Shown: positions 5,231-48,939 of the stretch, in pieces
How the letters are laid out: each line of letters begins with the position of its first letter
Position numbering within the stretch: the stretch's first letter is position 1
Position numbers and translations under genes: made by a program
The notes under the pieces: generated by a model
What the model saw: the letters and a program-made list of their open reading frames with translations, nothing else
What the model was told of the DNA's origin: nothing
Databases searched by the model: none
Assembly: GCA_950072105.1 (NCBI GenBank)
Contig: CATMOE010000024.1
Coordinates: 1-49,378 of the forward strand
DNA: 49,378 bases
Reading direction: 5' to 3'
Source of the DNA: an uncultured Dehalococcoidia bacterium
Lineage (GTDB): Bacteria; Chloroflexota; Dehalococcoidia; Lucifugimonadales; UBA3495

Positions 5231-5359
5231 GAGAGTTAACGTGACTCGGGCCGTGATAAACTTGAGAGGATGGCTGCGAGTTTGCTAGTCGATTATGTCG
5301 CTACTTCCAGAAAGGTTCTAGCTATGATCGAAGAAAATAACAGCGACCCGGCTCCGTAA

Positions 5360-5808: not shown

Positions 5809-5863
5809 TGCAACCGGTGAACTGGCTTTGGTGCCGCCTCGCTTGATTCGGGGAGCAAAATAA

Positions 5864-7140: not shown

Positions 7141-7336
7141 ATATAGCCGGGACGTGGACATACTTTCGATACGGCTTTCGGACGATCCCTTCGATCACGC
7201 CGAGGAGAGTGAGGGCATAATCACCCATTTCTCTAAACAGGGGAAACCCGTATTACTAGAGATTCAGGGAGCCCGCGATTTCCTTCTTAGCTCAATAACC
7301 AGCCTGATCGAAGAATCGGAGGTTACGCTTCCCTAA
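7130..7336 (+). CDS. DUF2283-family protein (putative antitoxin), pair 2
   Basis: KYSRDVDILSIRLS...HAEE...HFSKQGKPVLLEI; stop abuts trpC ATG. Confidence 0.8.
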   Translation: MKVKYSRDVDILSIRLSDDPFDHAEESEGIITHFSKQGKPVLLEIQGARDFLLSSITSLIEESEVTLP

Positions 7337-8143
7337 ATGCCTAACATCCTTGACGAAATTGTAGCCGCTAAGACCCAGGAACTGGCCCAACAAAAGTTGG
7401 CCGTATCCTTGGCCGATCTGAAGAAAACAATCGCCGCTCAACCGAAAGCCTTGTCGTTGGCGGAGGCGTTGGGGGCCGGCGGGGTGCAACTCATCGCCGA
7501 GGTCAAGAAAGCTTCGCCGTCCCGGGGGCTGCTTCGCCCCAACTTCGACCCGGTGGAGCTGGCGGACATCTACTCCAGCAACGGAGCGGCGGCTATCTCG
7601 GTACTCACTGACCCTCGGTTTCAGGGCGAGTTAGAGCACATAGTCCAGATCAAACAAGCCGGAGCTTCCCGAACCGCACCGGTGTTGCGCAAAGACTTCA
7701 TTTTCGACCCGTACCAGGTCTACGAAGCCAGGGCCGCTGGAGCCGACGCCATCCTGCTCATCGTGGCCATCTTGTCACCGTCACAGATAAACGAATACCT
7801 GGAGATAGCGTCGGAACTGGGCATGGACTGTCTTGTAGAGACCCACGACGAACAAGAGATGGAGATCGCGGCCAACGCCGGGGCTGTAATCATCGGCATC
7901 AACAACCGGGATCTCCGCACCTTCAAAACCGACCTGGCGGTGACCGAGCGTTTGGCGCCCTTGGCGCCCATGGGAAAAATCGTAGTCAGCGAGAGCGGTA
8001 TCCATCAGCCAGATCACTTAACGCAACTGGCCGGGTGCGGGGTCAACGCGGTCTTGGTGGGAGAAGCCCTGGTCACGTCAGACGATGTCGCCGGAAAAGT
8101 CCGGGAACTTGCGGGCCAGGCCGTCTCGCCGGCAAAGCCATGA
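7337..8143 (+). CDS. trpC: Indole-3-glycerol-phosphate synthase
   Basis: IAEVKKASPSRG, VLRKDFI, GADAILLI, GINNRDL, SESGI. Confidence 0.96.
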   Translation: MPNILDEIVAAKTQELAQQKLAVSLADLKKTIAAQPKALSLAEALGAGGVQLIAEVKKASPSRGLLRPNFDPVELADIYSSNGAAAISVLTDPRFQGELEHIVQIKQAGASRTAPVLRKDFIFDPYQVYEARAAGADAILLIVAILSPSQINEYLEIASELGMDCLVETHDEQEMEIAANAGAVIIGINNRDLRTFKTDLAVTERLAPLAPMGKIVVSESGIHQPDHLTQLAGCGVNAVLVGEALVTSDDVAGKVRELAGQAVSPAKP

Positions 8144-8820
8144 CTCAAGCCGTAACAAAGGTCAAGATCTGCGGCATACGGACGCTCTCTGACGCCCAAG
8201 TGGCCGCCCAGGCCGGCGCCGACTTTATCGGTTTGGTGTTCGTTCCCGGCCGGCGCAGGCGATTGGAATTGGATGTAGCCCGAAAACTGGTCGAAGGCCT
8301 AAAAAATGGTCCAGGCGGAATTCCCCGGGTAGTGGGGCTATTCGCCGACCAGCCTCTTGAAGAAGTGAACCACATCATCGAAACCTGCAACTTGGACATG
8401 GCCCAACTGTGCGGGACCGAATCCCTGGACTATTGCAGCGATACCAAAGCCGAAGTGATCAAGGTGGTGCACGTCCCCCAGTCGCCGTCGTCTCCGGAGC
8501 CCCAAGGAGAACTGGTCAAGAAGATGACATCCTACCGGGAGAACGGCTGCCTGGTCACCCTAGACCGGCTGGTCGAGGGATTACAGGGAGGGACCGGAGA
8601 GAGCTTCGACTGGAGCATCGCCGCCGCCGTGGCCGAGTCAGGAAACTCGTTCATCCTGGCCGGAGGGCTGTCTCCGGACAACGTGGCCAAGGCCGTGACC
8701 ACCGTTGCTCCTTGGGGTTTGGACGTTTCCACCGGTGTAGAGACCAACGGGGATAAAGACCACAAAAAGATCAGGGACTTCTTATCCATCGCGAAACAGC
8801 GCTCAGTCTTAAAGAGCTGA
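8140..8820 (+). CDS. trpF: Phosphoribosylanthranilate isomerase
   Basis: KVKICGI, GADFIGLVF, GGTGESFDW, LAGGL, DVSTGVE; ATG at 8140 overlaps trpC stop. Confidence 0.93.
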   Translation: MTQAVTKVKICGIRTLSDAQVAAQAGADFIGLVFVPGRRRRLELDVARKLVEGLKNGPGGIPRVVGLFADQPLEEVNHIIETCNLDMAQLCGTESLDYCSDTKAEVIKVVHVPQSPSSPEPQGELVKKMTSYRENGCLVTLDRLVEGLQGGTGESFDWSIAAAVAESGNSFILAGGLSPDNVAKAVTTVAPWGLDVSTGVETNGDKDHKKIRDFLSIAKQRSVLKS

Positions 8821-33073: not shown

Positions 33074-33125
33074 GGGGGATTGGGGCTTTGCACGGGCTAC
33101 TAGGCTGCGGGCGACGGAGACAATC

Positions 33126-34028
33126 ATGAGTCAGATCGCCATACCTTCTCCATGGCTGGGTTGGCATGTGGCGTTGCGATTGGGACGGGTATCCAATCTT
33201 CCAACGGTATGGACCAACGTCGTGGCCGGAGTGGTTCTTTCGGGCGGAACGATGGATGCCTTTCCGCTGGTGTTGCTTATCGTCGCCCTCTCCTTGTTTT
33301 ACGTCGCGGGGATGTATCTTAACGATGCGTTCGACCGTAAGACCGATGCTCGGGAACGGCCAGAACGCCCCATCCCCTCTGGACAGGTGAGAACGTCAAC
33401 CGTTTTCGCCATTGGCTTCTCGCTGCTGCTGGCCGGCGAAGGGGTCCTGGCCATAATAAGCTACGGGCTGGAAGGAGGTCAGGGTTGGCCTCCCCTGGTT
33501 GCAGGCGTGGCATTGGCCGCCGCCATCGTCTATTACGACATGCACCACAAGACGAACCCGTTGAGTCCGGTGGTTATGGGATCGTGCCGGGCGTTGGTCT
33601 ACGTAACCGCGGCCCTGGCCGTTACATCCAGCCTTTCCAACCCCGTCCTGTGGGGCGCCGGCCTGATGCTCGCCTATCTCATCGGACTTACCTATGCGGC
33701 GAAACAGGAAAACCTGGCCAAAGTTAAGAACGTCTGGCCCTTGGCGTTCCTTGCGCTCCCATTCGCATATGCGGCGACTTCGGCATTGGCAAGCCCGATC
33801 ATCGCCCTGATCTACATCGGTTTCCTGTTGTGGGTCATTTACGCGCTGGTTCACCTGATGTGGCGCAGCCGGATCAACTTCCCTTTGGCCGTGGGCAGTC
33901 TGCTGGCGGGAATCTCATTCCTAGACGCTCTCCTCATTTCCGGTCATGGGGAGGTCTTGATCGGTTTATTGGCCGTAGGGGCGGTGGTCTTGACCAGATT
34001 GGCGCAGCGCTACATCCCTGGCACCTGA
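33126..34028 (+). CDS. UbiA-family prenyltransferase, EboC-like
   Basis: RVSNLPTVWTN, GMYLNDAFD...ERPERPIPSG, YD..HK, MGSCR; ATG at 33126. Confidence 0.85.
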   Translation: MSQIAIPSPWLGWHVALRLGRVSNLPTVWTNVVAGVVLSGGTMDAFPLVLLIVALSLFYVAGMYLNDAFDRKTDARERPERPIPSGQVRTSTVFAIGFSLLLAGEGVLAIISYGLEGGQGWPPLVAGVALAAAIVYYDMHHKTNPLSPVVMGSCRALVYVTAALAVTSSLSNPVLWGAGLMLAYLIGLTYAAKQENLAKVKNVWPLAFLALPFAYAATSALASPIIALIYIGFLLWVIYALVHLMWRSRINFPLAVGSLLAGISFLDALLISGHGEVLIGLLAVGAVVLTRLAQRYIPGT

Positions 34029-35402
34029 TCAGCCGGTCAGATGATTCAAGACCAAGCCTTTAACTGCAGTGGCCGGAATGGGGCCCTCCGGAAGTAGGGC
34101 TTCTTCGGAGGAGATAAAGACTGGGCCGGCTTCAGGCCGTTCGGTCACTCGGCCATGGGAACCCTTGACCAGCGAGGCGTCGAGACCAATCACATCCATC
34201 AAAGTACGAAAGCCTAGCTTCATGTTCAGAATTCGCCAGGCTATGCGAATCTTCGGCATTCGAAGCTGAGGATCGAGGAAGAGTTCAGCCGGGTCAAATC
34301 CAGGTTTACGATGGATATCCACCGTTCTAGCAAAGTCGGGAGCTTTGTCGTCATCAAGCCAATAATAATAAGTGAACCACCGGTCTGGACGGCTGACGGC
34401 TACCAACTCTCCCGAGCGCGAATGATTCAACCCCATATCCCGCTTGCCCTCTTCGTCAAGAACCATATCCACGCCGGGTAGAGCCTCCAGCAGCGCCTTA
34501 ACTTCGGCGATTCTCTTCGGGCTACGGACGTATACGTGTGCGATCTGGTGATCGGCCACGGCGAAAGCCTCGCTAGCGCCGGGATCAAGTAGCTCAGTCC
34601 CCAACTCATTCCGGACGTGAATCAACCCCGCTTCTCTAAGAGCGCGGTTGATGTGGACCGGCCCTTCCACATCGGTGACCCCGTATTCGGACAGAACGAT
34701 GACTCGGGCTCCGTCTCGCTGCACGTTCTCGACAATCTCGCCGCATAGATCGTCGATGGCTCGCAGATCCCGGCTGATACCGGGATGAGACGGTCCAAGG
34801 CGCTGCAGATTATAGTCGAGATGTGGCAGATAGACCATGCTGAGCGTAGGCTGGAGCGTTTTTTGGATATACAAAGCACAGTCGGTGATCCACCGGCTGC
34901 CGCTTATATCGGCGAAGGGGCCCCAAAAGCGAAAGAGCGGGAACGGCCCAAACTGGGAATTTAACTCGTCGCGCAATCCGGCGGGTTGGGTATAAACGTC
35001 GGGAATCTTACGCCCGTCGGCGGGATACATGGGTCGCGGCGTGACCGATATATCCGCCGATGCATACATGTTGTACCACCAGAAGAGCTTGGCGCAGGAG
35101 AAGGAGGGATCTAGATCGCGGGCTGCCTCCCAGATCTTCTCTCCGGAAACCAACCGGTTGGATTGCCGCCAGAACCAGACCTCGGACAAGTCTCTAAAAT
35201 ACCAGCCATTACCGACGATTCCATGATCCCGTGGCATCAACCCGGTTGCCATCGTAGCCTGAACGGAGCAAGTTACCGCCGGAGTGACGGTTGATAAGGG
35301 CCTGACGCCTCCCTGTTTAACGAGGGCGTTGATGTGGGGCGTATCATCGCCAAGAAGGCCCTGAGTCAGACCAACGACGTTAATCACAACCGTGGGATGC
35401 AT
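34029..35402 (-). CDS. Alkaline phosphatase / nucleotide pyrophosphatase family protein, EboF-like
   Basis: VVINVVGLT, PAVTCSVQ, HGIVGNGWY, YLPHLDY.LQR, VADHQIAH, VDIHRKPG.DP.ELF, VKGSHG. Confidence 0.85.
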   Translation of the reverse strand: MHPTVVINVVGLTQGLLGDDTPHINALVKQGGVRPLSTVTPAVTCSVQATMATGLMPRDHGIVGNGWYFRDLSEVWFWRQSNRLVSGEKIWEAARDLDPSFSCAKLFWWYNMYASADISVTPRPMYPADGRKIPDVYTQPAGLRDELNSQFGPFPLFRFWGPFADISGSRWITDCALYIQKTLQPTLSMVYLPHLDYNLQRLGPSHPGISRDLRAIDDLCGEIVENVQRDGARVIVLSEYGVTDVEGPVHINRALREAGLIHVRNELGTELLDPGASEAFAVADHQIAHVYVRSPKRIAEVKALLEALPGVDMVLDEEGKRDMGLNHSRSGELVAVSRPDRWFTYYYWLDDDKAPDFARTVDIHRKPGFDPAELFLDPQLRMPKIRIAWRILNMKLGFRTLMDVIGLDASLVKGSHGRVTERPEAGPVFISSEEALLPEGPIPATAVKGLVLNHLTG

Positions 35403-35570
35403 ATTTCTTTGGCCTTGCCGCTCGATTTACCGGACCGTCTATCTGGCGTTAGACCTAGTCGCGACACGGAGCGAATAATATGCCTGATCGGGATTCATGT
35501 CCAACTCGGCCAAAGCTACTCTTGGAGTCAGAAACCGATAGTTATATCCAGTGCGGTAATGCATCGGGAA

Positions 35571-36842
35571 CTAGGTATGAATTGCCACCCCGCTTCCCCC
35601 TCCCCGCGGTCGCTTCGCCGCCACAACGAGGACGAAGCTAATCAGGGCACAGACCGCCAGGTAGGCCAGAGCGTCTTGGTACCGGCCCCACCGGTCGAAG
35701 GCGATGCCTAATATCAGGGGGCCTAGGGCGAAGCCGGCGACTTGGGAGGCCCGGCTTAATCCGTGCATGGACCCCAAGATTCCCCTGCCGTAATAGCTGG
35801 CCCAAAGGATCGGGGCCAGTGCGTTCAAACCGCCCGATGCCACTCCATGCAAGAAGGCGAACAGGTAGGCTTCGGCCAGATTGTCGGCAAGGATCAAGAC
35901 GCCGATGTCGATAGCGGTGGTCAGGCACACGCAGGCCATCAAGAGACGGGGCGGCACGCGTTCCGCCAGGAACCCCAGCGCCAGGATCCCCACCGCGCTC
36001 GACGTGGACATCACGCTTATCACTCCCACCGCTTGACCCGTGCTCAATCCCTGCTGCGTCAGATGCGGCACCAAGTGCAGGGTAACTCCCGAGCCGGCGG
36101 TACTGGCCAGGAACAGGGAAATCAGGATGAGCCAGAACGGAGGCGTGGCCACCACTTGCCGCAAGGTCCACTGGTCAGGTTCGCCCCCCGCAAAAACCGT
36201 GGCGGCATCGGCGTCAGGCCCCGCCCTCCCGTCCACCACCAAACCGTAGTCCTCGGGCTGACGCCGGATCAAAGCGAAGCTGGGAACGATGCCCAGGACG
36301 GCCATTACCGCCGCCAACAGAAGCCAAGCCGCGCGCCACCCCCAAGCACCGATAGCCAGTTGAACCAAAGGGGCCATGACCATTATTCCGGCCGAGCCGG
36401 AGAAAAAGACTAGAGCGATGGCTCGGCCACGATACCTCTGGAACCATTTCCCCACCGAAGGAGCGGCGCCGATCTTGATCAACCCTTGGTCGGCCGTCCT
36501 GGCGATGGTATAGCCCACATAGAATCCCAGCAGCGTTTGAACCGAAGCCAAGTACACGCAGGCCACTACCACCAGAGTCCCGCCCAAAGTCAGCACCCAA
36601 CGGGAGCCGATCCGGTCGACAAGCCGGCCAGAGAACGGGGCAAGGGAAGCCCCAAGGACGGCTCCCACGCTAGTCACGGCGGAGATTTCGGTCCGGCTCC
36701 AGCCAAACTCTTCAGTGAAGGGATTAACGAAAATTGTGAGGATGCCTATAGCCGTTGCCGCGTTGGCGAACTCCATCCCGCCGGACACCGCGACAATTAT
36801 CCAGCCATAGTAGATCCGTTTGGAGATACGCTGCATGGGCAA
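35571..36842 (-). CDS. MFS transporter (OFA/MCT-like)
   Basis: YYGWIIV, GRLVDRIGSR motif A, KWFQRYRGRA; about 12 TM segments. Confidence 0.88.
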   Translation of the reverse strand: MPMQRISKRIYYGWIIVAVSGGMEFANAATAIGILTIFVNPFTEEFGWSRTEISAVTSVGAVLGASLAPFSGRLVDRIGSRWVLTLGGTLVVVACVYLASVQTLLGFYVGYTIARTADQGLIKIGAAPSVGKWFQRYRGRAIALVFFSGSAGIMVMAPLVQLAIGAWGWRAAWLLLAAVMAVLGIVPSFALIRRQPEDYGLVVDGRAGPDADAATVFAGGEPDQWTLRQVVATPPFWLILISLFLASTAGSGVTLHLVPHLTQQGLSTGQAVGVISVMSTSSAVGILALGFLAERVPPRLLMACVCLTTAIDIGVLILADNLAEAYLFAFLHGVASGGLNALAPILWASYYGRGILGSMHGLSRASQVAGFALGPLILGIAFDRWGRYQDALAYLAVCALISFVLVVAAKRPRGGGSGVAIHT

Positions 36843-37041: not shown

Positions 37042-37761
37042 GTGCCGATGAGCGGTAATGGCGACAGTCAATACCAGCCGACGATACGGGACCTGCCCCA
37101 AGGCGAGCGTCCCCGGGAGCGGCTGCGGGCATTCGGACCCAAGTCCTTAAGCAATACCGAGCTCATCGCCATTCTATTGCGCACGGGTTTGCCGGGAGAG
37201 AACGTCTTGGCCGTCTCCTCGCGCCTGCTGGCCCGTTTCGACGGCCTGGCAGGATTAGGACGAGTCAGCTTCGCTGAGTTATGCGCCGAACGCGGCCTTA
37301 GCGAGGCCAAGTCCAGCCAACTCATGGCCGCGTTGGAGTTGGGACGGCGATTCGTCTCCCTGGCGCCCCAGGAACGGGCGGTCATCAACTCGCCCCAGGA
37401 CGTGGCCAACCTGCTTTTGGCGGAGATGTCGGTCTTGGACCAAGAGCACCTGAAAGTTTTGCTGCTCAATACCCGCAATGAAGTGCTGGGCATTCAAGAG
37501 ATCTACGTGGGTAACGTCAACAGTTCAGTGATCCGAGCGTCGGAAGTGTTCCGCCCGGCGGTACAGGCAAACGCGCCGTCGATCATCGTCGTCCATAACC
37601 ACTCCTCGGGAGACCCGGCCCCCAGCTCCCAAGACGTAGACATCACCAAAGAACTGATCTCGGCCGGCAAACTGCTGGGTATAGAGCTACTGGACCACGT
37701 CGTGCTGGGCAGCGCCAACCGCTTCGTCAGCCTTAACGAGATGAGACTAGCGTTCACTTGA
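37042..37761 (+). CDS. radC: RadC (JAB domain) protein
   Basis: ERPRERL...LSNTELIAILLRTG, HNHSSGDPAPSSQD, LLDHVVLG. Confidence 0.93.
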   Translation: MPMSGNGDSQYQPTIRDLPQGERPRERLRAFGPKSLSNTELIAILLRTGLPGENVLAVSSRLLARFDGLAGLGRVSFAELCAERGLSEAKSSQLMAALELGRRFVSLAPQERAVINSPQDVANLLLAEMSVLDQEHLKVLLLNTRNEVLGIQEIYVGNVNSSVIRASEVFRPAVQANAPSIIVVHNHSSGDPAPSSQDVDITKELISAGKLLGIELLDHVVLGSANRFVSLNEMRLAFT

Positions 37762-39093
37762 GTCTTCGGTTTGCGTAGAGTGGGGCCCGGAAGCGCCCGT
37801 CGAATTAGGAGTCCACGCCGGTTCATCCGTTCCATCAACAGCCTTTTCAAGGTTAGTCCCCACCCGCCGTCGTACGAGGGGTGTCAGGACCATCACCAGC
37901 AGGATCAACAGGATCCCGGCTCCGGCGTTGATCCCGATGGCCAATCCAATACCAAAGGTGCTGGCTATCGCCCCTATCTCGGAACCTCCAATCAGGTGTC
38001 CCAGGCCGTTTACCATCCCTTGTGCCCCCATCACCCGTCCTCTTATTTCCGGCCGTGATTCCAACAGCAAGATTGTGCTCTGCATAGTGCTGAAACCCGC
38101 TTGCCCTAAGCCTCCAAAAAGCAGTAGCGCGAAAGAGACGGCGTACCAGGGAGACCAGGCCATCGACGCTACCGCTGACGCCACGACCAGCGCACCGGTA
38201 CAAAATAATCGGCCATGGTAGCGAATGTTTCTTTTTAAAGCGATGATCGAAGCGCCGATCAACGTGCCAATACCTTCCGCGGAGCCCAGCAAACCTCCCA
38301 GGACAGGTCCGACCAAGAGCAGGTCGTTGGCGATCACTGGGATAAAATACTGGATGGGAAAGACCAGCGCGTTCACTATCAGCGACATGCTGAGGACACC
38401 CAGAACCATCCGGTTGGCCAGGGAGTGCTCTACTCCCTCCCGTAGACCCCGCGCCATCGAAAGCCCAGAGCTGATAGCCTGAGCCTGAAATGGCAGCCGC
38501 ATCCTAGTGATCAGCAAGAGAGCAGCCAGGTCCAACGCCACGATCACGGCATAAGCGCCGTTAAATCCGGCCCAAGCGATCAAAATACCGCCGGCCACCG
38601 GTCCCAGTATCCTGCCCCAGTTATTCGTGATCGTTTCCAGGGACATTGCGCTGGCGATATTTTCTTGGCCCGCCAGATCAAATATGGCGGTGCGCCGGGC
38701 GGGATCGTCAGTCACCCTCACCGACCCTTGCACAAAAACGGCGATGAAGATTTGCCATGGCTGGATAGTTCCGATGATGAGTAACACCAGTATGGCCACG
38801 GCGATCCCGACGTAAGAGGTGTGCGCCGCGATCAAAATGCGGCGCCGGTCCAGCCGGTCGGCCAGAAGCCCGGCAAAGAGGGCCAGGACAGGGCGGGGAA
38901 TGTTGAGGAAGACTGCTATCAACCCCACCTGGAACGCGGAGTCGGTCAATCGGAGAATCAGGTAGCCCAACACCAGCAGCTCCATCCGCCGGGAGACCTC
39001 GTGAATCGACCTGGCGGTCCAAAGAAAGCGGAAATCTTTGCTTCGGAGAACCTCCAGCACTGGGCTCCTGGACTTCCTGAGCAAGTGGATCAA
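37747..39093 (-). CDS. MFS transporter (MFS_3/DHA3-like)
   Basis: DFRFLW, GLLADRLDRRR, DPARR, RGRVMG; hydrophobic. Confidence 0.88.
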   Translation of the reverse strand: MIHLLRKSRSPVLEVLRSKDFRFLWTARSIHEVSRRMELLVLGYLILRLTDSAFQVGLIAVFLNIPRPVLALFAGLLADRLDRRRILIAAHTSYVGIAVAILVLLIIGTIQPWQIFIAVFVQGSVRVTDDPARRTAIFDLAGQENIASAMSLETITNNWGRILGPVAGGILIAWAGFNGAYAVIVALDLAALLLITRMRLPFQAQAISSGLSMARGLREGVEHSLANRMVLGVLSMSLIVNALVFPIQYFIPVIANDLLLVGPVLGGLLGSAEGIGTLIGASIIALKRNIRYHGRLFCTGALVVASAVASMAWSPWYAVSFALLLFGGLGQAGFSTMQSTILLLESRPEIRGRVMGAQGMVNGLGHLIGGSEIGAIASTFGIGLAIGINAGAGILLILLVMVLTPLVRRRVGTNLEKAVDGTDEPAWTPNSTGASGPHSTQTEDSSER

Positions 39094-39253
39094 GCTCCTG
39101 ACGCGGAATGTGTTCGGTACGCCTGCGACTCGGTGCTATAGCGTACCACGACCCTCCAGCTAATACGCCCCCGTCCAGCACGACGTGATAGACGGAAGGT
39201 GGTGTGCAGCGGGCGGCCCGGTGAAGGGCATGAGATCCATCGCCGTCACGACG

Positions 39254-39793
39254 TCAGAAACTACCCAGCCTTTCTGCGTTCCGAAGCATGATGGTCCGCT
39301 GGATAGTGGTAACGCGCCGGTCGATGACCTGAAGAGTATCCCGCATGAATGTGCCATTTTCATGTTGAGGTCCGATCATCAGGTGCCCCAGTTCGTGGTC
39401 CATAATCTCATTGAGGAGTTCCGCCCGGCCTCCTGCCACCGCGGCGATTCCGTTGCCGGTCCACGCCAGACCCAGATCCCCCTAGGTTCCCACAGACTGG
39501 GCTAGAGGAAAGACGAATAAGGTAGGCTCTGGATGGCCCAGCTTCCACCGGTGCAGCTCGCGAAGATTCTCTCCCAGGTTATCTATCGGATTTATGTTTT
39601 CAATCCAGCCACGCACTGTGGGTTGCCAAACGATGCCCTGCCGCTTCCAAAAGACGACGCTTTCTTCCAAGGATGTCTCCACCCGCTCAATGGTTTGGTA
39701 ACTCAGGGACGGCACAACGACGACGACGTTCAATGGCACCTTGATGAAGGGCCGCGCGAGCATCCTGAGGAGCCACATTCTAGCTGTGCTCAT
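39254..39793 (-). pseudogene. Metzincin-like metalloprotease interrupted by an in-frame TAG
   Basis: ORFs 39482-39793 and 39254-39439 share a frame and are separated only by TAG (39484-39482); HELGHLMIGPQH...FM motif. Confidence 0.6.
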
Positions 39794-40183
39794 TAATCCT
39801 CCCGCGATAAGTGATTAGACGGTTTTCGCGACACCGATCAGCCGTCTTTTAGCTACACCCCTGCGCCCACATCCAACGCTAGCTTCAGGGTCTCCCCTGG
39901 TGGTAGATCAGTGTAAGAATAAGCTGAATACCTTCTCAGGCCAAGTCCCAGTCCACTATCCGGCGCTCGTCGCAGATTCCTGGCCACGCCTTGAGACCTC
40001 CACCTTAGTTGCCAAAGTGAGTTCCCGGCCCAGGGGTTGACCACACATAGTTGAAACACCGGGCGACCGATGGCTGGAGTGCACATGGGCGCCATCCTGG
40101 TTCGGATGGACCTTAAGGCCGACATGGAGCCGGCCCAGGAGGGTTGAAGGACTCAGCTCCTGGCAGGTTGCCCCACCCATCAG

Positions 40184-40213
40184 AGAGCCCCAGTTTAGGC
40201 CGGGGGCGTTGAT
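40184..40213 (+). mobile_element. IS200/IS605-family end-like hairpin (orphan)
   Basis: AGAGCCCCAGTTTAGGCCGGGGGCGTTGAT resembles the GCCCC..TTTAG..GGGG..GTTGAC ends of IS200/IS605 elements. Confidence 0.35.
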
Positions 40214-40610
40214 TTGTTGCTTAGGCTCTCGGATGCATCAGTTTTCGAACCTCGGGAACGATTTGCGGTAAATCGACGTTATGTATGTGAGCGGGACGCC
40301 TGGGTCATTAGTCCGCCGGCCGGCCAGGTCCCGCCGGTGACCGGTTGGTGACCGCATCCCTTTATAGTTTCGCTGGTCGAGGCATCCCCCATAGTCCCAG
40401 AAGTGGCGGAATCTATTTGACCTGGAAAATACAACATTTAGCGCTATGAGCGGCGAATACTATGTCAGAAGAAAAAGAAGTTCGTTCGAATGGCTTTACC
40501 AAATCGAACAGTCCTAACAGATTTGACTAGGCCGCCCTGGAGGCGGGCCAGCCCCTTAGGACATCTGGCGATCGGAGCAGTCCCCTAGCCCAGATAAGCT
40601 GCGGGCGGAG

Positions 40611-41660
40611 ATGACCGTCGCGTCGAACACTGTCATCGGTACGCTTCCGGGCGGCACGGAGGTCGTGGCCGCGTCTCTCGAGGCCGGACGGGAGCTACTC
40701 ACGACCGTCGATGACTACCTGAGCCAACAGAGCCCGTTCGATCGTCAGGCCCGGGTGAACTTGCGCCGCCAGGTCGTCGAGGTCACGCTGCCGATGTACC
40801 TCGATTACATCGCTTCACAGGTGATGAGCTGGTCGCAGACCGAGATCAAGGCCCTGGGCGCGATCGTCTCTGCGATGGCGAAGTTGTTCGCACCGCTCTC
40901 CCTGCGGCTGCCGGCGGAGATTCATCTGGTCAAGACAAGCGGCCAAGAAGAAGGCTACGCTGCCTACACCCGGCGCAAGGACACGATCGTCCTGCCGGCC
41001 AACATGGTCGCGAGCGTCGAGACCGCCACGAGCTACGGCGACCCGCTCCACCCCACCAACGACGTTTCGTATCTACAGAACGTCATGATTCACGAGTGCT
41101 TCCACCTCTTCAGCAAGAACCACCCTGAAGAGCGGTTCAAGCTCTACGATCGTATTCACTACCGCTCCACCGGCGCCGCCGTCCTGCTGCCCGACGTGCC
41201 TTGGGGCCCGCCCGGGTCCCAGTCGACGATGGCCGATCTGAAAATAACGAACCCCGACGAGCCCGACTTCGACGTCTACATCGAGATGCTCGTGCCCTCG
41301 ATCCCCGGGGACGAGGACAGCCCCCGCGTGAAAAGGGCCCTGGCGCCGCTCCTGCTCGCCAATAGACCGTACGAAGGAGGCGTCTTCTTTGAGTACCTCG
41401 AGTGGTGGTTCATGAGCATCGCGGAGGGCCCCGACCGCCGCTGGGCGCCGGTCCTGGGCCCCGACGGGTACCCCGTGATGTACGAGAGCGCGCCGCTCAT
41501 GCCCGAGTACCTCGCCCTCGTCACTGCCAATTTCACCCAGGAGATCTTTCAGCCCGACGAGATCCTTGCGCAGAACTTCGTCCTGGCGGCGAACCAGCCG
41601 AGCCTCGACATCCTCAGTTTCATGAACCAGACGCTTTCGGCCAACCGGGGGTCGTCATGA
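40611..41660 (+). CDS. Hypothetical protein with HExxH zincin-like motif
   Basis: KTSGQEEG.AAYTR, IHECFHLFS, ITNPD, QPDEILAQNF (candidate third ligand Glu). Confidence 0.7.
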   Translation: MTVASNTVIGTLPGGTEVVAASLEAGRELLTTVDDYLSQQSPFDRQARVNLRRQVVEVTLPMYLDYIASQVMSWSQTEIKALGAIVSAMAKLFAPLSLRLPAEIHLVKTSGQEEGYAAYTRRKDTIVLPANMVASVETATSYGDPLHPTNDVSYLQNVMIHECFHLFSKNHPEERFKLYDRIHYRSTGAAVLLPDVPWGPPGSQSTMADLKITNPDEPDFDVYIEMLVPSIPGDEDSPRVKRALAPLLLANRPYEGGVFFEYLEWWFMSIAEGPDRRWAPVLGPDGYPVMYESAPLMPEYLALVTANFTQEIFQPDEILAQNFVLAANQPSLDILSFMNQTLSANRGSS

Positions 41661-42781
41661 GCCTCGGACGAACGACCATTCTCTCGATCAGCGCGGCGCT
41701 CCTCAGCGCGAGTTTACTCCTCGGGTGCGCTGGGAGCCGCGATGCCGAACCGCCGTTAGGGCGGACGTTCGATACGCCAGCGTACGTGCTTGATCCCTCG
41801 TTCCCCCGGCCGTCGTGGGTGACGTTCGACACCGTGAGCTGGGTCGACCGCGATCCGGAATCGAACCTAGTCTATGTCCTTCAGCGCTCCGCGCCGCCGG
41901 TCAGCGCGTGGACGGCGGACGGAGAGTTGGTGTCGACCTGGACCACGCAAGTGCTGGGAGACCCACACTCGATATCGTTCGACACTGGTCCGGACGGCTC
42001 CACTACAGTTTGGATCACAGACATGGCCCCTCCGCTCCTTGTTGGTCAGGGGTACGGCCACTGTTTGAAGTCATTCACCCTGTCCGGAGAGTTCCTATCG
42101 ACCATCGGGACGTGCGGAGAGAACTCTCAGGGGACGGGACTCGATCCGGTGCAGTTCGACAAGGTAACCGACGTCGCCTGGGACGCGGCCGGCAATCTGC
42201 TCGTTTCCGACGGCGATCTCAACGGGCTCAACAACCGTGTGCTTAAGCTCGACTCCAGCGGTGTGGTCCTTGCGAGCTGGAGCACACCCGGCGATCAGCC
42301 TGGGAGTGGACCCGCTCAGTTCGATCTGCCACACATGCTGATCGTCGACCGGTGCGATCGCATCTGGGTGGCCGACGCGCTTAACCACCGGGTGCAGGTG
42401 ATCGCGAACGACGGCACGTTCCTCGGCGAGATCACGTCCTTCGGTGATCTCGGCGTGTACGCCGTCGCGTTCGGCGCCTCATTCTCTTCGCCTCCGGAGA
42501 CGATACTCTTCGTCGGCGCCAGCCCGACCTCTGGTGGGGGGACGGGGAGGATTTCCCTGTTTGCGGCGCCGATGGATTGTACGCAACCTACCATCGCAAA
42601 CCTGGCCGCTTTTGCGACCTTCGATGTTCCGATACCCACCTCGACGTCGACGACACTCCTTCACTCGATGACTGTCGACCCGGAGACTTGGGACGTCTAC
42701 TTGGCGGTGCTCGGAGGCAAGCTCCCCCCGCAAAAGTGGGTCCCAGCTTGGCCCGGAGGTGAGCGGCCCAGCCCGCGCTGA
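41657..42781 (+). CDS. NHL-repeat beta-propeller lipoprotein, PAL-like
   Basis: Lipobox LLLGC; PHSI, FDKVTDV, FDLPHML, VADALNHRVQV repeats; ATGA overlap with upstream gene. Confidence 0.8.
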   Translation: MSLGRTTILSISAALLSASLLLGCAGSRDAEPPLGRTFDTPAYVLDPSFPRPSWVTFDTVSWVDRDPESNLVYVLQRSAPPVSAWTADGELVSTWTTQVLGDPHSISFDTGPDGSTTVWITDMAPPLLVGQGYGHCLKSFTLSGEFLSTIGTCGENSQGTGLDPVQFDKVTDVAWDAAGNLLVSDGDLNGLNNRVLKLDSSGVVLASWSTPGDQPGSGPAQFDLPHMLIVDRCDRIWVADALNHRVQVIANDGTFLGEITSFGDLGVYAVAFGASFSSPPETILFVGASPTSGGGTGRISLFAAPMDCTQPTIANLAAFATFDVPIPTSTSTTLLHSMTVDPETWDVYLAVLGGKLPPQKWVPAWPGGERPSPR

Positions 42782-42847
42782 AAAAGCAGCGTGGCGAAGC
42801 AAAGAGCGTCCGATCCTCTTTTCATTGCGTACTTTACAAGGAGAAAC

Positions 42848-44241
42848 ATGAACGCATTAAACAGCGCCGTCGATCCCGTGCCCCCGTCCGCGTACCCGTC
42901 GCTTCAGTCCGTGACGACGCCCCAACCGGCGATGCCGGCGTTCTGGGCTGCCACCGTCCTGCTCCACCCCTTCAGCCCACCCTTGTCGACCGATCCGACG
43001 CCCGACAATCCGTTCTTCCAGCTCTGCGTCGCCGACATCAGTTACTCGCAGGGGGAGTATTTCTCCGCGCAGGTCTCCGGCTGCTCCTACGGAAACTGGT
43101 GGTACTTTATTACAGCCATTGGCACGCAACTCTCGACCGATGGCGGAAACACCTGGAAGTTTGTCGATATGGGGTGGACGCTGCCGGAGAACTGGTATGG
43201 GGCACAGGGCCCGAACGCCGCCTGCGCCGGAGCATCGCCGCTGAACTGGATGGACGCGCAGACAGTTGACTGGTGGAAGATCCCTGTTCCCCTCAAGGGC
43301 TCGCTCTCCGCCGCGACGTGGATGTGGTTCGATTCCATCACTGCGGCGCCGGTGCGCATGATGGTCGGCAATGGCCCGCCGTCGCCGACCATGGGCGATC
43401 CGACGCAGCTTGCATTCTTCCAGATGTGGTCATTCACGTATTTCCCGAACTTCCAATCCTACGACTTTGCCAGCGAGGCCACCGCGAAGCCGGAGACCTT
43501 CGTGTCTCCGTCGTTCCCCGGCTTCGCGGTGGGGAACCCGAACGGCTATCAGAATTTCGTCTGGAATTCGAACTTCGGCATGACAGCGTTCATGACCCCG
43601 GTCAACGAGCAGTTCAACCCACTCCCCACGCGCGTCCTGTACGTATGGAAGGCGGATCAAGAGTATTCCGTCTACTCGGACCGGGCCCAAAACACGTTGA
43701 TGATGTCCACCTACAACCCCGGCCAGATGGTCGCGCAGGAGGCGCTACTCACGGGCCCGGCTCCCTACGGGGTCGTTCCTCCGCCCAATAGCGCCACTGG
43801 TTTCCTCATCAACTTCGAATCGGACGGCTCATCGACGTGCATCGGCGGGAGCCAGTTCCCGTTCCCGCAGGAGCCGCCCACCTGGGTCTCCATCCCGCGG
43901 TCGAGGCGACGATCCAGGCGACGATTACGAACAACCCCGTCATCGCCCCGAACACGACCGTCACGATCTTCTCGGTGCTATTCCCGCCTGCGCCGCCAAA
44001 CTACCCGGAAGCGACCTACCTGTGGACGTGGTACGCGCCGCAGAACGCGACAGGGACGGAGAGCCGGCCCATCACGTTCATGCAGTCGCAGTCGGGGGTG
44101 AGCGTTGGGACGAGCCTCGCGCTCGCCGATTACTTTTACTACCAGGATTTTCAGCAACCCATCGACCCGTCGAACTTCGACATACCAGCGTCGTGCAGCC
44201 CGCAGACACGAAATACCGGGATGCGGCACAGACTTCCATAG
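42848..44241 (+). pseudogene. Frameshifted hypothetical protein with two ependymin/LolA-like repeats
   Basis: AAGGAG RBS and ATG at 42848; reading frame switches near 43893-43898 (WVSIP to AVEATIQAT); ends IDPSNFDIPASC. Confidence 0.6.
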
Positions 44242-44814
44242 CCGAGGGGCCTACTCGCCGCCAATCGTGTGCCTGACCCGGCGTTGCGTCCGCGATCGCA
44301 TAGTGGGCCACTATGCGCACTTCCGAACCGAGCTTTCGCAAATTTGACTTGGGCGGTTAGGCGAAGAGATTGGCATATCCTGGGTCAAAGATAGTCTTCA
44401 CCCATCAAGGCGGCGCAGGTAACCTACTGGGACCCGGGAGGCAGGACGCCTTCGAGATGACTACCAACACGCAGGCGCGCGGCGCGCATTGAAGGCCAGA
44501 TTACGGAGAACGGGCGGGGGACCTATCAGGCGACCGGTTCCTATCCCGGCGGCGACTTGGATCCAGATGTTGCCCTTACCCAAAACGGCCAAGCCCGTGG
44601 ACCAATTCCATATTCAGGGCACGCACTGGAATAATCCTTTTGGCCGTCGGTCCTGACGGTGATCCCCAGTTCGGACAACCGGTTTAGACCTGCAACGGCG
44701 CCCATCTAGACTGCCTCCACATCAACAACATTTCCAGGGTTAAGGTGCTCACCTTCCACCTCTCAGACCGCTGAAGCGACATCTACTGGGTCGATCGGAG
44801 TCTTGGAAAGGTTG

Positions 44815-44843
44815 TTGACGGGTTCGAATCGCACTTTTACACT
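44815..44843 (+). promoter_or_regulatory. Sigma70-type promoter for the amidohydrolase gene
   Basis: TTGACG-17 nt-TACACT. Confidence 0.6.
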
Positions 44844-44924
44844 GCTAGCAGACAAACGCAGTGGCGGAATTCCCGGAGAACCCGTGTTAAGCGGGAAAAC
44901 CCGGCGAGGATAGGGGGAAATACG

Positions 44925-45770
44925 ATGGCAACTCAGACTCCCACGATCGACTCACAAGTACATGCCTACGAGCGAAATAGTCCGGAGCGTCCTTGGGCCA
45001 GGATTCCACCGTGGCCGGACGAAGTAACCGGGGACGATATGGTGGCCGCGATGGACGCGGTCGGCGTAGACGGGGCTTTGCTGGTTTCGCCATTCAGTAT
45101 GTATCGCTATGATCCCTCATATGCACTCGAGGTATACTCGAAACATCCGGGCCGGTTCGGCTTGATCAAGCCATTTGATCCGCAGTCGGAAGCCGTCGCC
45201 GACGAGGTCGCTGAGTGGGCAACGACACCGGGTGTGGTCGGAGCCCGGATCATGCTCACCGACCAGCCATTCCAGGCGAACGACCCGGGTATCGATCGGA
45301 TACTCGCCGCCGGCGCTCAAGCCGGCATCCCAGTGAATATTATGTGTTCGGGCAAGCTGCCGCTCTTTCTAGAACTGGCGCGCCGCCATCCAGACACACA
45401 GATGGTGGTTGATCATGTGGGGATAGCCCAGCCCTCGGAACCACCGGCGCCGCCAGAACCGTTCGCCGATCTGGCCAACGTGGTTTCCCTAGCGGCCTGC
45501 GACAACGTGTCCATCAAGATTTCCGGCGCCTGTACCCTGTCCCATCAGCCATTCCCCTACCCGGACATCTGGGAGTCTCTGCGCCTGGTTTTCGACGCGT
45601 TTGGCCTTGATCGATGCATGTGGGGCACCGACTGGACCCGGGCCGTGGGAGTGTTGAACTACGAACAGGGCGTTGAGGCGTTCCGGGTTACGGACCAGCT
45701 CTCGGATTCAGAGCGATCCGCACTCATGGGAGGGACCCTGGCGAAGATTTACAACTGGTCTCCCAACTAG
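44925..45770 (+). CDS. Amidohydrolase_2 family protein
   Basis: IDSQVH, VVDHVG, IKISG, RCMWGTDW. Confidence 0.88.
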   Translation: MATQTPTIDSQVHAYERNSPERPWARIPPWPDEVTGDDMVAAMDAVGVDGALLVSPFSMYRYDPSYALEVYSKHPGRFGLIKPFDPQSEAVADEVAEWATTPGVVGARIMLTDQPFQANDPGIDRILAAGAQAGIPVNIMCSGKLPLFLELARRHPDTQMVVDHVGIAQPSEPPAPPEPFADLANVVSLAACDNVSIKISGACTLSHQPFPYPDIWESLRLVFDAFGLDRCMWGTDWTRAVGVLNYEQGVEAFRVTDQLSDSERSALMGGTLAKIYNWSPN

Positions 45771-46055
45771 GAGCAAGGCATCCGGCAGATGACCGGTGAT
45801 GATCTTCCTTCGTAACCCGATCCAATGCAGCCCTCATGCAAGTGGTCGACTCCACCGGTAGCCGCCGACTTACGCCCTGATTCTTTATCCCTTACCGGCT
45901 TCGTTAGTCCGGCCATGCCGTCACCCCTCCGGACCTAGGGCGAACGCGTTGTTTTGGCAGACTCCCGGCGTTTACTTGAACCAGCCGCCGATTGGAACTT
46001 AGAACACTTTAACAATAGAATGGGTATGGTTCGGTTGAGACTGGCCGAGGGTCCC

Positions 46056-46133
46056 GAGTTGCCGGACCATGTAGCGCTGGGGAGCGCCAATCGCTTTGTC
46101 AGACTCAACGAGAAGGTACTGGCGTTCGAGTAA
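46056..46133 (+). pseudogene. radC: Duplicated radC 3'-terminal fragment
   Basis: ELPDHVALGSANRFVRLNEKVLAFE* versus radC ELLDHVVLGSANRFVSLNEMRLAFT*; 19/25 aa and 59/78 nt identical by hand alignment. Confidence 0.88.
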
Positions 46134-46172: not shown

Positions 46173-46835
46173 TTGCACCATCTGCTCATCGCCGTCGCTC
46201 TGCTGGCCGCCGTCGGGCTCGATCTGATCTTTGTAACCTTCTCCGACGAGCCCTCCGCCGCGCTGACCTTCGCCCTGCTTTCCTACTTCATCATGCTGCT
46301 TTTGAGCGGTTCCGCCGGTAGCTACGTGCCCGACATGCCAGACTACACAACCTTTCTTGGCCCTTTGGTCCGAGAAGGGATGCAGGGATTTGTTTCCCGT
46401 TTGCTACTGGCGTATAGCGTGCCGGCGGTGCTGCTTCTGCTGGTGGCTTTCATCCCAAGTTTGGCCGATCCTCTCACTCCCAGCGCCACCGTCCAGTTGG
46501 GTTCCACTTTGGCGGTATTCTGGCTCTTGATGTCCTTGGGCCTGGTGGGAGTGGTCCAAGGGTTCCTCTGGCCCCACAGCGGAGTCTTCCAAGCGGTGAT
46601 CGTTGGCGGATTGGTGGTATTGACTCAAGGCCTGTTGAGTTGGGCCAAAGTCGACGCCGGCCGGGAAGAGCTGCAATTGGCTTTATACACCTGGATGGTA
46701 TGGGTGTCTATCTGCCTCATCGGAGCTTGGGTGGGGTTGCTGCTGCGTGAAGTTAGCGGACTTCAACCGAGAGGAACCCCGGAGCTTCCCGGAGAAGAGC
46801 TTCCCGCCTACGCTCAGGATATTAGGGAAGAATAA
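46173..46835 (+). CDS. Hypothetical membrane protein
   Basis: About 6 hydrophobic segments; start uncertain. Confidence 0.6.
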   Translation: MHHLLIAVALLAAVGLDLIFVTFSDEPSAALTFALLSYFIMLLLSGSAGSYVPDMPDYTTFLGPLVREGMQGFVSRLLLAYSVPAVLLLLVAFIPSLADPLTPSATVQLGSTLAVFWLLMSLGLVGVVQGFLWPHSGVFQAVIVGGLVVLTQGLLSWAKVDAGREELQLALYTWMVWVSICLIGAWVGLLLREVSGLQPRGTPELPGEELPAYAQDIREE

Positions 46836-46891: not shown

Positions 46892-47221
46892 ATGTCCTAC
46901 TTTGTCGACGCTGAAAACCGGGACCCAATGACGTTGGTGCCCGGAGCCCGTACTCGAACGTTCTGGGGTGAGAACATCCTCTTGTCCTTGGTGGAGATCG
47001 ACGCGAACTCGGAAGTGCCCGTCCACACTCATCCTCACGAGCAAGCTGGCATGCTGGTGAAGGGAGAGTTGGAGATGGGCGTGGCTGGCGAAGTTAAGCA
47101 TCTGAAGCCTGGAGACATGTACATCATACCCGGAGGCGTGGAGCACTACGCCAAGTGCGGCGATGTAGCGGCTCTGGCTTTGGACATCTTCAGCCCCGTA
47201 CGCGAGGAGTTCAAGTACTAG
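46892..47221 (+). CDS. Cupin_2 domain protein
   Basis: HTHPHEQAG...PGDMYIIPGGVEH...DIFSPVREEF; AGGAGG RBS before ATG 46892. Confidence 0.9.
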   Translation: MSYFVDAENRDPMTLVPGARTRTFWGENILLSLVEIDANSEVPVHTHPHEQAGMLVKGELEMGVAGEVKHLKPGDMYIIPGGVEHYAKCGDVAALALDIFSPVREEFKY

Positions 47222-47437: not shown

Positions 47438-47513
47438 GGGGATATAGCTCAGTTGGGAGAGCGCGGCGTTCGCAATGCCGAGGCCGAGGGTTCGAGTCCC
47501 TCTATCTCCACCA
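47438..47513 (+). tRNA. tRNA-Ala (anticodon CGC)
   Basis: GGGGATA acceptor stem with G3-U70, anticodon arm CGGCG-TTCGCAA-TGCCG, TTCGAGT T-loop, encoded CCA. Confidence 0.96.
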
Positions 47514-47516
47514 AAT

Positions 47517-47592
47517 GCCCCTGTAGCTCAGAGGATAGAGCGGCGGCGTCCTAAGTCGCGCGTCGGGGGTTCGAGTCCCTCCAGGGGTACCA
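47517..47592 (+). tRNA. tRNA-Arg (anticodon CCT)
   Basis: GCCCCTG/CAGGGGT acceptor stem, GCGGC-GTCCTAA-GTCGC anticodon arm, encoded CCA. Confidence 0.92.
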
Positions 47593-47595
47593 TAC

Positions 47596-47673
47596 AGGAG
47601 CGTAGCTCAGTTTGGCCAGAGCGCTGGTCTCCAAAACCAGTGGTCGGGGGTTCGAATCCTCCCGCTCCTGCCA
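47596..47673 (+). tRNA. tRNA-Trp (anticodon CCA)
   Basis: AGGAGCG/CGCTCCT acceptor stem, CTGGT-CTCCAAA-ACCAG anticodon arm, G73, encoded CCA. Confidence 0.96.
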
Positions 47674-47726: not shown

Positions 47727-47753
47727 ATTTTGCCGACATTTTGCCGACATTTT
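47727..47753 (+). repeat. Tandem 11-bp direct repeat, candidate integrase arm-binding sites
   Basis: ATTTTGCCGAC ATTTTGCCGAC ATTTT. Confidence 0.65.
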
Positions 47754-48939
47754 ATTTTATTCTGAGTTCGGAGGGCGTTGATTTCTCTCGGTCTTGGTAT
47801 TTCTTTAACCCTTCCTGCAAAGTGCGTGCGGCATCTCTCTGCAATCCGAGCGGGACATGAGAGTAAATGTCCATTGTAGTGGCAATCGTAGAATGTCCCA
47901 GCATCTCACCAACCACTTTGGGGTTGACTCCGAAGCTCATCATCAGGGTGGCGAACGCGTGGCGATTGTCGTGCAATCTGGATTCCAGGCCCGCTTTCTT
48001 AACTATTTTCTTGGAAGTATGACTGACAGTGCCGGGGTCGAGAGGAGAGCCATCCGAGTGGGCAAACACCAGGTCCATATCGTCAAATGGCAGACCCAGT
48101 AATGTTCTTTGTTCTTCTTGGTGCCTCTTATAGCCTCTAAGCAGGATAGCTAAATCGGGCGTTAAAGCTATATCTCGACGGCTCCGGGAGGTCTTGGGTT
48201 CCTTCAGGATAAATTCTCCCCTGACTCGTTGTAGAGTCCGCACTACTGAGAGTGTAGCCATGTCCAAATCAACGTCATGCCATTTCAAACCCAGCAGTTC
48301 CCCTCGTCTCATTCCAGTGTAGATAGCGGTGTAAATCAATTCATAATAAGGGGCTCCGTGGGCTTGGGCAGCAACCAATAACTGATCCACCTCTGGTGGA
48401 TTCAGGATAACCGCTTCATATCGGCTTGGCTTTGGGGGGTCCACCGCATCAGCCACGTTCCTGTGTATCAACTGCCACTTTACCGCATGTTTTAGCGCTT
48501 CAGAGAGGACTCGATGATGATGATGCACCGTCCTGGCAGATAAGCCCCCCTTTCCGTCCCGGCGCCCTTTGGCTAAAGCTTTCTTGTAATATGCTTGAAC
48601 ATCGGCTGGCTGAAGCTTCGCGAGCGGTACATTCCCCAACGCGGGTATCAAATGGCACATCACTATCATTCTGTATCCATTGGCAGTGGACGGTGCCGTT
48701 TTAATGGCTACATAATCCTCCATCCACCTTGCCAAGAATTCTCCCAGTGTTACCTTGGAAGTGTCCAGTGACATTCCGTTATCCACGGACGTGAGTAGCT
48801 TTCTGAGTTTTTGTTGGGCCTGAGTTTTGGTGCCCTTGACGTTGACGAACTTGCGGAGCCGTTTGCCATCGGCGTCCCGGCCCTGATCAATGGTCAGTTC
48901 GTAAGTGCCCTTTCCACGTTTACGTATGCTGCCGTTCAT
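47752..48939 (-). CDS. Tyrosine recombinase/integrase (phage/ICE type)
   Basis: N-terminal GSIRKRG arm-binding domain; TGMRRGE (R), EPKT (K), HDNRH, LGHS, DIYSH (Y). Confidence 0.95.
   Translation of the reverse strand: MNGSIRKRGKGTYELTIDQGRDADGKRLRKFVNVKGTKTQAQQKLRKLLTSVDNGMSLDTSKVTLGEFLARWMEDYVAIKTAPSTANGYRMIVMCHLIPALGNVPLAKLQPADVQAYYKKALAKGRRDGKGGLSARTVHHHHRVLSEALKHAVKWQLIHRNVADAVDPPKPSRYEAVILNPPEVDQLLVAAQAHGAPYYELIYTAIYTGMRRGELLGLKWHDVDLDMATLSVVRTLQRVRGEFILKEPKTSRSRRDIALTPDLAILLRGYKRHQEEQRTLLGLPFDDMDLVFAHSDGSPLDPGTVSHTSKKIVKKAGLESRLHDNRHAFATLMMSFGVNPKVVGEMLGHSTIATTMDIYSHVPLGLQRDAARTLQEGLKKYQDREKSTPSELRIK

Follow-up and report, generated by a model that had tools for sequence, protein, structure and literature searches.

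A duplicated radC gene end around variable DNA in a Dehalococcoidia genome: a candidate scar of integrase-free insertion

Results

The end of radC is present twice

The window, by which we mean the whole stretch of 49,378 nucleotides analysed here (contig CATMOE010000024.1 of an uncultured Dehalococcoidia bacterium), carries an intact radC gene and, just in front of a membrane-protein gene that starts at 46173, a second, stranded copy of the radC end (Table 1). An earlier note had taken the two copies as the borders of a radC-targeting element. The window was compared with its host genome (G000, 4.08 Mb), with two sister species (G001 and G002), with other genomes of the family and class and with comparison contigs (L-numbers).

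Ungapped alignment of positions 37684-37761 with 46056-46133 gave 59/78 identical nucleotides (nt), 19/25 identical amino acids (aa) and eight synonymous codon differences, as counted in the earlier note, with six non-synonymous codon differences and a TGA/TAA change of the stop besides (blastn E 3e-11 for the pair). As the second-best ungapped 78-nt match in the whole of G000, on both strands, reaches just 42 identities, this resemblance is not a product of chance. The repeat is thus real, but the edge placed by the earlier note just upstream of a GAG codon is not: similarity begins about two codons further upstream, at G213, where relatives show GIE in both copies, and extends beyond the stop across a spacer of 39 bp as far as the 46173 gene, whose start codon it reaches (spacer similarity of the window pair p<=0.001, 2000 shuffles). 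The full repeat measures about 125 bp and takes in radC codons 213-239, the stop, the spacer and the adjoining start codon. Two independent assemblies, L058 and L059, each cover both repeats at 99.6% identity, which rules out an assembly artefact, and four diverged contigs also carry both copies. As the earlier note stated, radC itself is whole: it has a UPF0758 N-terminal domain and a JAB domain, and tblastn of the genome found one full-length copy only. The mobile-like ends that it also mentioned did not materialise, since none of the best 25 of 157 inverted repeats, ranked by length, pairs the two ends. We also considered, and rejected, a 10-mer common to the radC promoter and the DNA 5' of the right copy (window pair p 0.36 versus shuffles); in the same comparison 4/27 pairs had p<=0.033, every one involving L062.

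Table 1. Features at the radC locus, with two further gene-end repeats of the host genome (window positions unless a contig is named)
Feature	Position	Strand	Basis
radC, intact housekeeping gene	37042..37761	+	UPF0758 N-terminal domain and JAB domain, Pfam PF20582/PF04002; NCBIfam NF000642 above cut-off
Left repeat copy: radC codons 213-239, stop, worn spacer copy up to the position of the next-gene start codon	37677..37800	+	Alignment
MFS transporter, genus-native	37747..39093	-	Pfam MFS_3/MFS_1
Variable stretch with short broken frames	39226..40610	.	No Pfam family above cut-off
Foreign three-gene cassette	40611..44241	+	Gene order as in Burkholderiales; tetranucleotides
Cassette gene 1: 349-aa HExxH protein, possibly eCIS_core/DUF4157-like (unconfirmed Atlas lead)	within 40611..44241	+	
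Cassette gene 2: NHL-repeat-like protein	41657-42781	+	
Cassette gene 3, frameshifted near 43,893 in the window	42848-44241	+	
Amidohydrolase_2, genus-native	44925..45770	+	Pfam
Constant inner right end	45878..46048	+	Kept in every variant reaching it
Right repeat copy: radC tail left stranded (46050-46133), then the ancestral spacer, in which GGAGG resembles a ribosome-binding site, and the membrane-gene start codon	46049..46173	+	
Membrane protein of no known family (Atlas cluster unnamed), ancestral downstream neighbour of radC	46173..46835	+	
Cupin gene, ancestral neighbour downstream of radC	46892..47221	+	Pfam Cupin_2; synteny
tRNA-Ala/Arg/Trp cluster, outside the radC repeats	47438-47673	.	
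Tyrosine integrase of a separate tRNA-linked element, outside the radC repeats	47752-48939	-	
selB scar, young: first 35 codons duplicated (96%) on either side of two small frames, one of them for a DUF4926 protein	L267:3062-4209, contig C10		
DUF885 array: three stacked gene-tail copies, with SnoaL+MFS and a second yajQ-like (DUF520) gene between them	L247:4033-7164, contig C6		

Empty sites and the ancestral gene order

The membrane gene was matched in 11 of 202 family genomes, and in all ten other than G000 the end of radC lies at most 0.32 kb upstream of it, which is the empty arrangement that the earlier note had proposed to look for; G153 has a broken radC here, and G018 and G152 each have two radC genes in tandem, of which the second borders the membrane gene. 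Seven metagenome contigs also have radC next to the membrane gene, and in several empty sites the spacer measures about 40-60 bp, compared with 39 bp after the right copy. Since radC directly precedes the membrane gene in these relatives, DNA was inserted at this site in the window. The right spacer resembles the spacers of two distant empty sites (p<=0.007), with p 0.13-0.95 for left spacers (400 shuffles); the right copy thus occupies the ancestral place, in keeping with the earlier idea that the original 3' end was displaced to the far side. Judged by these gene orders, the ancestral arrangement was radC-membrane gene-cupin. In G002 (L031:11215-11445) and L064:1664-1891, the radC stop is separated from the spacer by some 230 bp of other DNA, which contain a palindromic hairpin and which we take to be REP-like. 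Short matches to this hairpin DNA occur at several places in G000, and the similarity of the G002-type gap to the window insert was borderline (p 0.015-0.9).

The DNA between the repeats varies among close relatives

Among metagenome contigs with a radC at least 93% identical in nt, the distance between the repeats is 8,371-8,373 bp in the window, L058 and L059; it is 1,836 bp in L062, L063 and L118, which hold the MFS gene only, and 3,070 bp in L065, which holds the MFS and amidohydrolase genes. L062, L063 and L118 are identical around the repeats and perhaps represent one population. L061 and L073 diverge from the window directly after the left repeat and have no MFS gene, L073 rejoining it at 39219-40139 (92%); contig L060 ends before the distinguishing region. 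These differing inserts in close relatives indicate that the 8.3 kb are not one element.

Much of the interval is native to the genus. The MFS gene, present in all four contigs with shorter inserts, is 79.5% identical in nt to a gene that lies elsewhere in G002, and the amidohydrolase gene (in L065, not in L062, L063 or L118) is 81-85% identical to G001 and G002 genes elsewhere. Both have a core-gene-like divergence (79-85% nt to G001/G002) and an ordinary composition, and 3' remnants of both persist in G000, that of the MFS gene at C17:56814-57094 and that of the amidohydrolase at C80:11763-11957, a locus where G001 has the whole gene. The cassette genes are collinear in Burkholderia sp. and Roseateles sp., and two of the three in a Burkholderiaceae metagenome-assembled genome; these are the three loci found, with long matches of 60-69% aa identity, and the cassette lies at the 99.9th percentile of 1,060 G000 windows in tetranucleotide distance. 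Burkholderiales gene order and tetranucleotide deviation together mark it as foreign. It is missing from L062, L063, L118 and L065 and is a later addition. The frameshift in its third gene occurs in the window and L058 and not in L059 or run X16, and X16 and L058 have a common frameshift in its first gene.

The stranded copy is decaying

The four distinct right copies have accumulated 3 synonymous and 11 non-synonymous changes, compared with 15 and 2 in the four distinct left copies (Fisher p=2.6e-4). The right-copy ratio equals the neutral expectation, and the stop is lost in the right copies of L062, L063 and L118. The right tail is decaying neutrally and the coding part of the left copy is under purifying selection. 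The synonymous excess of the window pair, from which the earlier note had deduced divergence under coding selection, therefore stems mainly from selection on the intact copy, the right one decaying at 3:11.

The 8/6 pattern of the window pair has a probability of 0.01-0.04 in simulations of copies born identical, so that a modest share of the excess may come from a donor allele that had already diverged. The other 11 left-right pairs, which are not independent of each other, show 3-8 synonymous and 6-10 non-synonymous differences and fit the born-identical model. Between left and right copies the proportion of synonymous differences (pS) is 0.38-0.59 and that of non-synonymous differences (pN) 0.15-0.22. 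Of the two copies, the intact one is closer to orthologous radC: it matches the G002 orthologue at 61/78 positions and the right copy at 52/78, which is what decay of the right copy predicts. Divergence between left and right is similar to that between the radC genes of G000 and G002 (pS about 0.5), and the insertion is accordingly old. In the radC tail pS reaches 0.25-0.50, against 0.15-0.21 in the whole gene.

Search for a radC-targeting element

No recombinase was found between the repeats by profile searches, as the earlier note had read it: matches to PF00589 and PF00239 on contig C24 fall at 47854-48405 only, and PHROGs gave none inside. Elsewhere in G000, tyrosine recombinases gave 12 matches and serine recombinases 8. 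A profile built on the 32 C-terminal residues of radC, which detects the tail in the window itself (E 1.4e-7), matched 178 of 202 family genomes; the best 150 of 270 matches were considered, together with all 149 matches of 58 other multi-match genomes. Among these 149 matches in 58 multi-match family genomes there was no stranded short tail downstream of a housekeeping radC. Three single short-frame matches in the family proved to be two group II introns, both at one site, and an IS insertion, described below. No radC-tail pair was found in 120 other genomes of the class, where G270 and G288 gave single short-frame matches, no isolated tail in 80 of 106 viral loci, and no match to a degenerate DNA pattern in viral contigs. 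Related islands that retain an integrase, which the earlier note had hoped for, were not found in the family, class and viral sets searched. Full tandem radC paralogues were found in G018 (L047), G020 (L040), G150 (L141) and G152 (L142), with a second copy 58-65% identical to the window radC.

The excised form imagined in the earlier note did not appear either: no joint of radC to the membrane gene was seen in any of four runs, three of which are contig sets and one a raw-read run that holds only relatives. Since contigs drop rare forms, this is weak evidence. Depth is level across the interval in the three contig sets, and one joint, 39196-45881, corresponds to the short form. The metagenome runs tied to the host are marine and hydrothermal. 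In sum, the gene-regenerating direct repeats and the empty site expected of an integrative element are present at radC, and an internal recombinase and reuse of the site by related elements were not found.

Three candidate sources or mobilisers were rejected. The integrase at 47752-48939 lies outside the repeats, beside tRNA-Trp, with short direct repeats of its own and uneven depth, although it may act in trans on the interval. The viral contig L153, considered as a radC-targeting phage, has a single radC match, and its integrase borders tRNA-like sequence on the other side. Group II introns and insertion sequences in radC occupy different sites, duplicate no tail and have left nothing recognisable in the window, where searches for them gave a best E of 0.005 and a single match of 52 aa. 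Such introns lie at the same radC site, just after the HNHPSG codons, in two genera (L138:12735-15122 in G133 and L139 ~4420-6815 in G046); they begin with GTGCG, encode a reverse transcriptase/maturase of 586-608 aa (TIGR04416 above cut-off for L138) and are 80% identical to each other. In G077 (L140 ~4614-8238), 3.6 kb with frames that are presumably IS21-like and IS256-like interrupt radC near codon 87.

Gene-end repeats elsewhere in the genome

Self-comparison of G000 for direct repeats of 45-400 bp lying 0.3-20 kb apart (word size 7, end tolerance 15 bp) gave 125 raw repeats, 57 of them low-copy, and in eight a gene end is paired with a non-coding copy. All eight preserve the gene, with a spare tail downstream or a spare head upstream (p=0.008). 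They affect genes that have no relation to each other: radC, selB, an HpaB-like monooxygenase, an amidase, DUF885, an HD protein, a WD40-like protein and a RidA-like gene on C132 (the last, first labelled from a shadow frame, is the tail of the RidA-like gene, its geometry unchanged). No common junction motif among them was visible by eye. For two of them a sister species has a clean, single-copy empty site: G001 for selB and G002 for the HpaB-like gene.

The selB copies differ in five codons, four of them synonymously. The DUF885 array has two tail copies in G001, without the DUF520 insert; the DUF520 gene inserted behind DUF885 in G000 is 94% identical to G001 and 91% to G002, the native copy 91% and 86%, respectively. 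These synonymous selB differences and the closeness of the inserted DUF520 gene to the sister species hint at DNA received from a relative. In G001, L321:14074-14803 holds an independent gene-tail repeat around a 0.56-kb insert; contig C11 of G000 is without the insert, the copy and a further stretch of about 350 bp.

In view of these data, the claim of an 8.3-kb radC-targeting element is not supported: the inserts of relatives differ (1,836, 3,070 and about 8,372 bp), much of the DNA is genus-native, no second case was found among 201 family genomes, 120 class genomes and 80 viral loci, and seven other genes are scarred in the same way.

Other features of the window

The end of the MFS gene adjoins the left repeat and overlaps the radC stop, and the gene is 16 codons longer than its G002 counterpart. 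In the variable stretch, a minus-strand frame (39254-39439) has a HELGH motif, which we assume to be metallopeptidase-like. The constant inner right end contains a promoter-like site (45992-46021) that points to the downstream genes, with both hexamers identical in L062 and L065. In the Atlas cluster of the membrane protein, Chloroflexota is the most frequent phylum among the 5 members that have a record. An Rfam scan gave nothing but tRNAs above the gathering score.

The tRNA-linked integrase has an 11-bp direct repeat at 47728-47750 and a lower, uneven depth in the runs, and is population-variable. Its region is missing at this place in L062, L063 and L064; L068 has a related integrase at the same place (83% aa), and the window differs from L058 by 22 bp at 47594. 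Upstream of radC, the UbiA-like and phosphodiesterase genes (33077-35600) form another indel, missing in L062, L063, L066 and G002, and L058 and L059 have 22 extra bases at 34714. G000 holds many paralogues of thiamine pyrophosphate (TPP) enzymes and MFS transporters (22 and 18 tblastn matches). These paralogues, the marine and hydrothermal runs and the phylum of the Atlas cluster suggest that the host is a SAR202-like member of Chloroflexota.

Discussion

As neither a recombinase between the repeats nor reuse of the site was found, the radC repeats are best classed as an insertion-duplication scar made without an integrase, which would be a variant of recombination products already known. It is reasonably probable that they mark a single old insertion, made by ordinary homology-directed recombination and not by a radC-specific integrase, in which about 125 bp of the target were duplicated. 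As read from the compared sequences, the insertion left radC whole and stranded a tail with its spacer, and genes were later gained and lost between the repeats; as a unit, the interval is probably no longer mobile. Donor DNA from a close relative, with a radC end fused to other genes, would have paired with the chromosome inside radC. The other donor end would have joined within the tail, either by homology-facilitated illegitimate recombination (HFIR) or because a circularised fragment integrated by a single crossover; either way the product would be gene, cargo and stranded tail. We propose that the one-sided geometry arises because only events that spare a whole gene end survive selection. 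The gap between the non-identical repeats would then be a safe place, where the MFS gene, the amidohydrolase gene and the foreign cassette could come and go through recombination in conserved flanks, and the tail and right end may have been kept because the tail separates the membrane-gene start from a promoter-like site brought in with the insert. HFIR has been described for naturally competent species, and single-crossover integration in E. coli gave duplications of 109-950 bp (PMC3240628); HFIR has been proposed for stranded effector tails in Vibrio (PMC5361080). In G000, dprA is present, and a ComEC (PF03772) match at G000:C3:75733-76563 has one internal TGA, which makes it a broken gene, two genes or a gene with a read-through codon.

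Several observations weigh against this interpretation. The joining mechanism is a proposal, and only natural end products are seen. HFIR is reported to be rare and usually to yield deletions (PMC3240628). DprA and ComEC families also match in non-transformable controls, so that competence stays putative. The radC empty sites are imperfect, those of the G002 type holding the 230 bp of other DNA, and elsewhere the empty sites are only partial for the C22 gene and the DUF885 array and the amidase insert is also in G002. The 84-nt tree, in which left plus right is the best grouping (62/69; alternatives p 0.13-0.15 in the approximately unbiased test), does not tell which copy is native. Finally, a scan of G001 (1.13 of ~3.1 Mb) gave two gene-preserving repeats and one non-preserving, and other family DNA (287 kb) one non-preserving; over G000, G001 and this other DNA, with an end tolerance of 30 bp outside G000, 10/12 repeats preserve the gene (p=0.039).

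It is unlikely that the locus is the relic of a site-specific integrative element, in which an integrase crossed over near radC codon 213 and brought a replacement 3' end and spacer, nearly all of the element being later deleted and replaced. The attL/attR-like geometry would suit such an origin, as identity blocks of integrative elements can be as long as about 250 bp and extend beyond the end of the gene (PMC10111431), and so would the 8/6 codon pattern of the window, improbable for copies born identical, and the recombinase matches elsewhere in G000. However, the window interval holds no recombinase or remnant, the family, class and viral sets searched no second stranded radC tail and the four runs no excision joint; the other 11 left-right pairs fit the born-identical model, and the seven other unrelated targets would each require a lost integrase of their own. 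The likeness to elements that replace a gene end (icd, fis and tRNA genes; TIGER/Islander) lies in the intact gene, the displaced tail, the ~125-bp repeat past the stop and the empty site (PMC10111431). The radC site departs from them in having no integrase, no conserved content and no recurrence, in repeats about 76% alike and in the scarring of unrelated genes.

Template switching is known from eukaryotic work. An intracellular switch during replication or break repair, leaving at the start of the membrane gene, copying a gene elsewhere and resuming about 125 bp back, would yield copies identical at birth, and we give this origin the same low probability as an element relic. The left-right pS and pN fit identity at birth, the best tree joins left and right, and the first cargo is genus-native with 3' remnants on C17 and C80. 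On the other hand, the almost entirely synonymous differences of selB and an inserted DUF520 nearer to the sister species point to DNA from another lineage, and the Burkholderiales-like cassette must come from outside.

Less probable still is a tandem duplication of the whole radC, with the second copy eroded to its tail and the gap filled by other genes. Tandem paralogues do exist in G018, G020, G150 and G152, but no interval holds a trace of radC codons 1-212 or of its promoter (nhmmer best E 0.75, tblastn best E 0.93), the tail matches window-type radC at 59-67/84 positions and the G018 paralogue at just 51-53/84, and erosion predicts heads and tails on either side whereas 8/8 scars of G000 are one-sided. 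An artefact of an assembly of 164 contigs with 6% contamination, or a chance resemblance, is virtually impossible given L058 and L059 at 99.6%, four diverged contigs with both copies and a next match of 42/78.

Homology-directed insertion, the origin we favour, has parallels in described systems. HFIR and single-crossover insertion-duplication likewise need one homologous anchor and no element-encoded recombinase; they are known from laboratory crosses, where HFIR mostly deletes about 1 kb (PMC3240628), whereas here there are natural end products only. In type VI secretion system (T6SS) effector-immunity and Rhs arrays, 3' ends are stranded and displaced downstream by incoming modules, are sometimes stacked and are attributed to HFIR (PMC5361080), and the DUF885 locus on C6 with its three tail copies resembles such stacks. 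Those arrays have a toxin as target and a toxin tip with an immunity gene as cargo (PMC5361080); in G000 the scars sit at housekeeping or metabolic genes and enclose unrelated cargo. radC is also a target of Tn554-family transposons and RIT elements (10.1101/2020.09.30.320143; PMC3414803), but these carry two or three tyrosine recombinases of their own, truncate radC and leave a repeat of about 6 bp. In the window there is no tyrosine recombinase inside, radC is intact and the repeat is 125 bp. Replacement flexible genomic islands of aquatic bacteria share with the radC interval differing gene sets at one locus, a lack of mobility genes and raised synonymous change at the border; they are larger and encode equivalent surface functions (PMC4033161), whereas the interval holds 2-8 kb of unrelated genes. 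The literature searched, mostly open-access text, contained neither an element that replaces the radC end nor a report of genome-wide gene-end scars in SAR202.

Taken together, these data look less like a mobile element specific to radC than like a general, integrase-free way for genes to be added. Contrary to a common reading, an integrase target need not lie where a gene tail has been displaced and relatives have an empty site, and island callers and catalogues of att sites can be misled by it. Gene-end scars offer a simple genomic signature of integrase-free insertion at ordinary genes, a process so far described, in the literature searched, mainly for toxin arrays and laboratory crosses. 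A bolder suggestion, which we hold to be rather doubtful, is that the host, which appears to be SAR202-like, routinely gains and relocates genes by target-unspecific duplication of gene ends, with DNA of relatives spliced in on either side of almost any gene and imperfect repeats of 50-140 bp left there. If this were true, the scars would be a countable and datable record of how large paralogue sets were built up in deep-sea bacteria, and could point to a dedicated recombination pathway. Paralogue expansions in SAR202 have been linked to the breakdown of dissolved organic matter (PMC6946804), and if the scars are enriched in SAR202 the mechanism of these expansions becomes testable.

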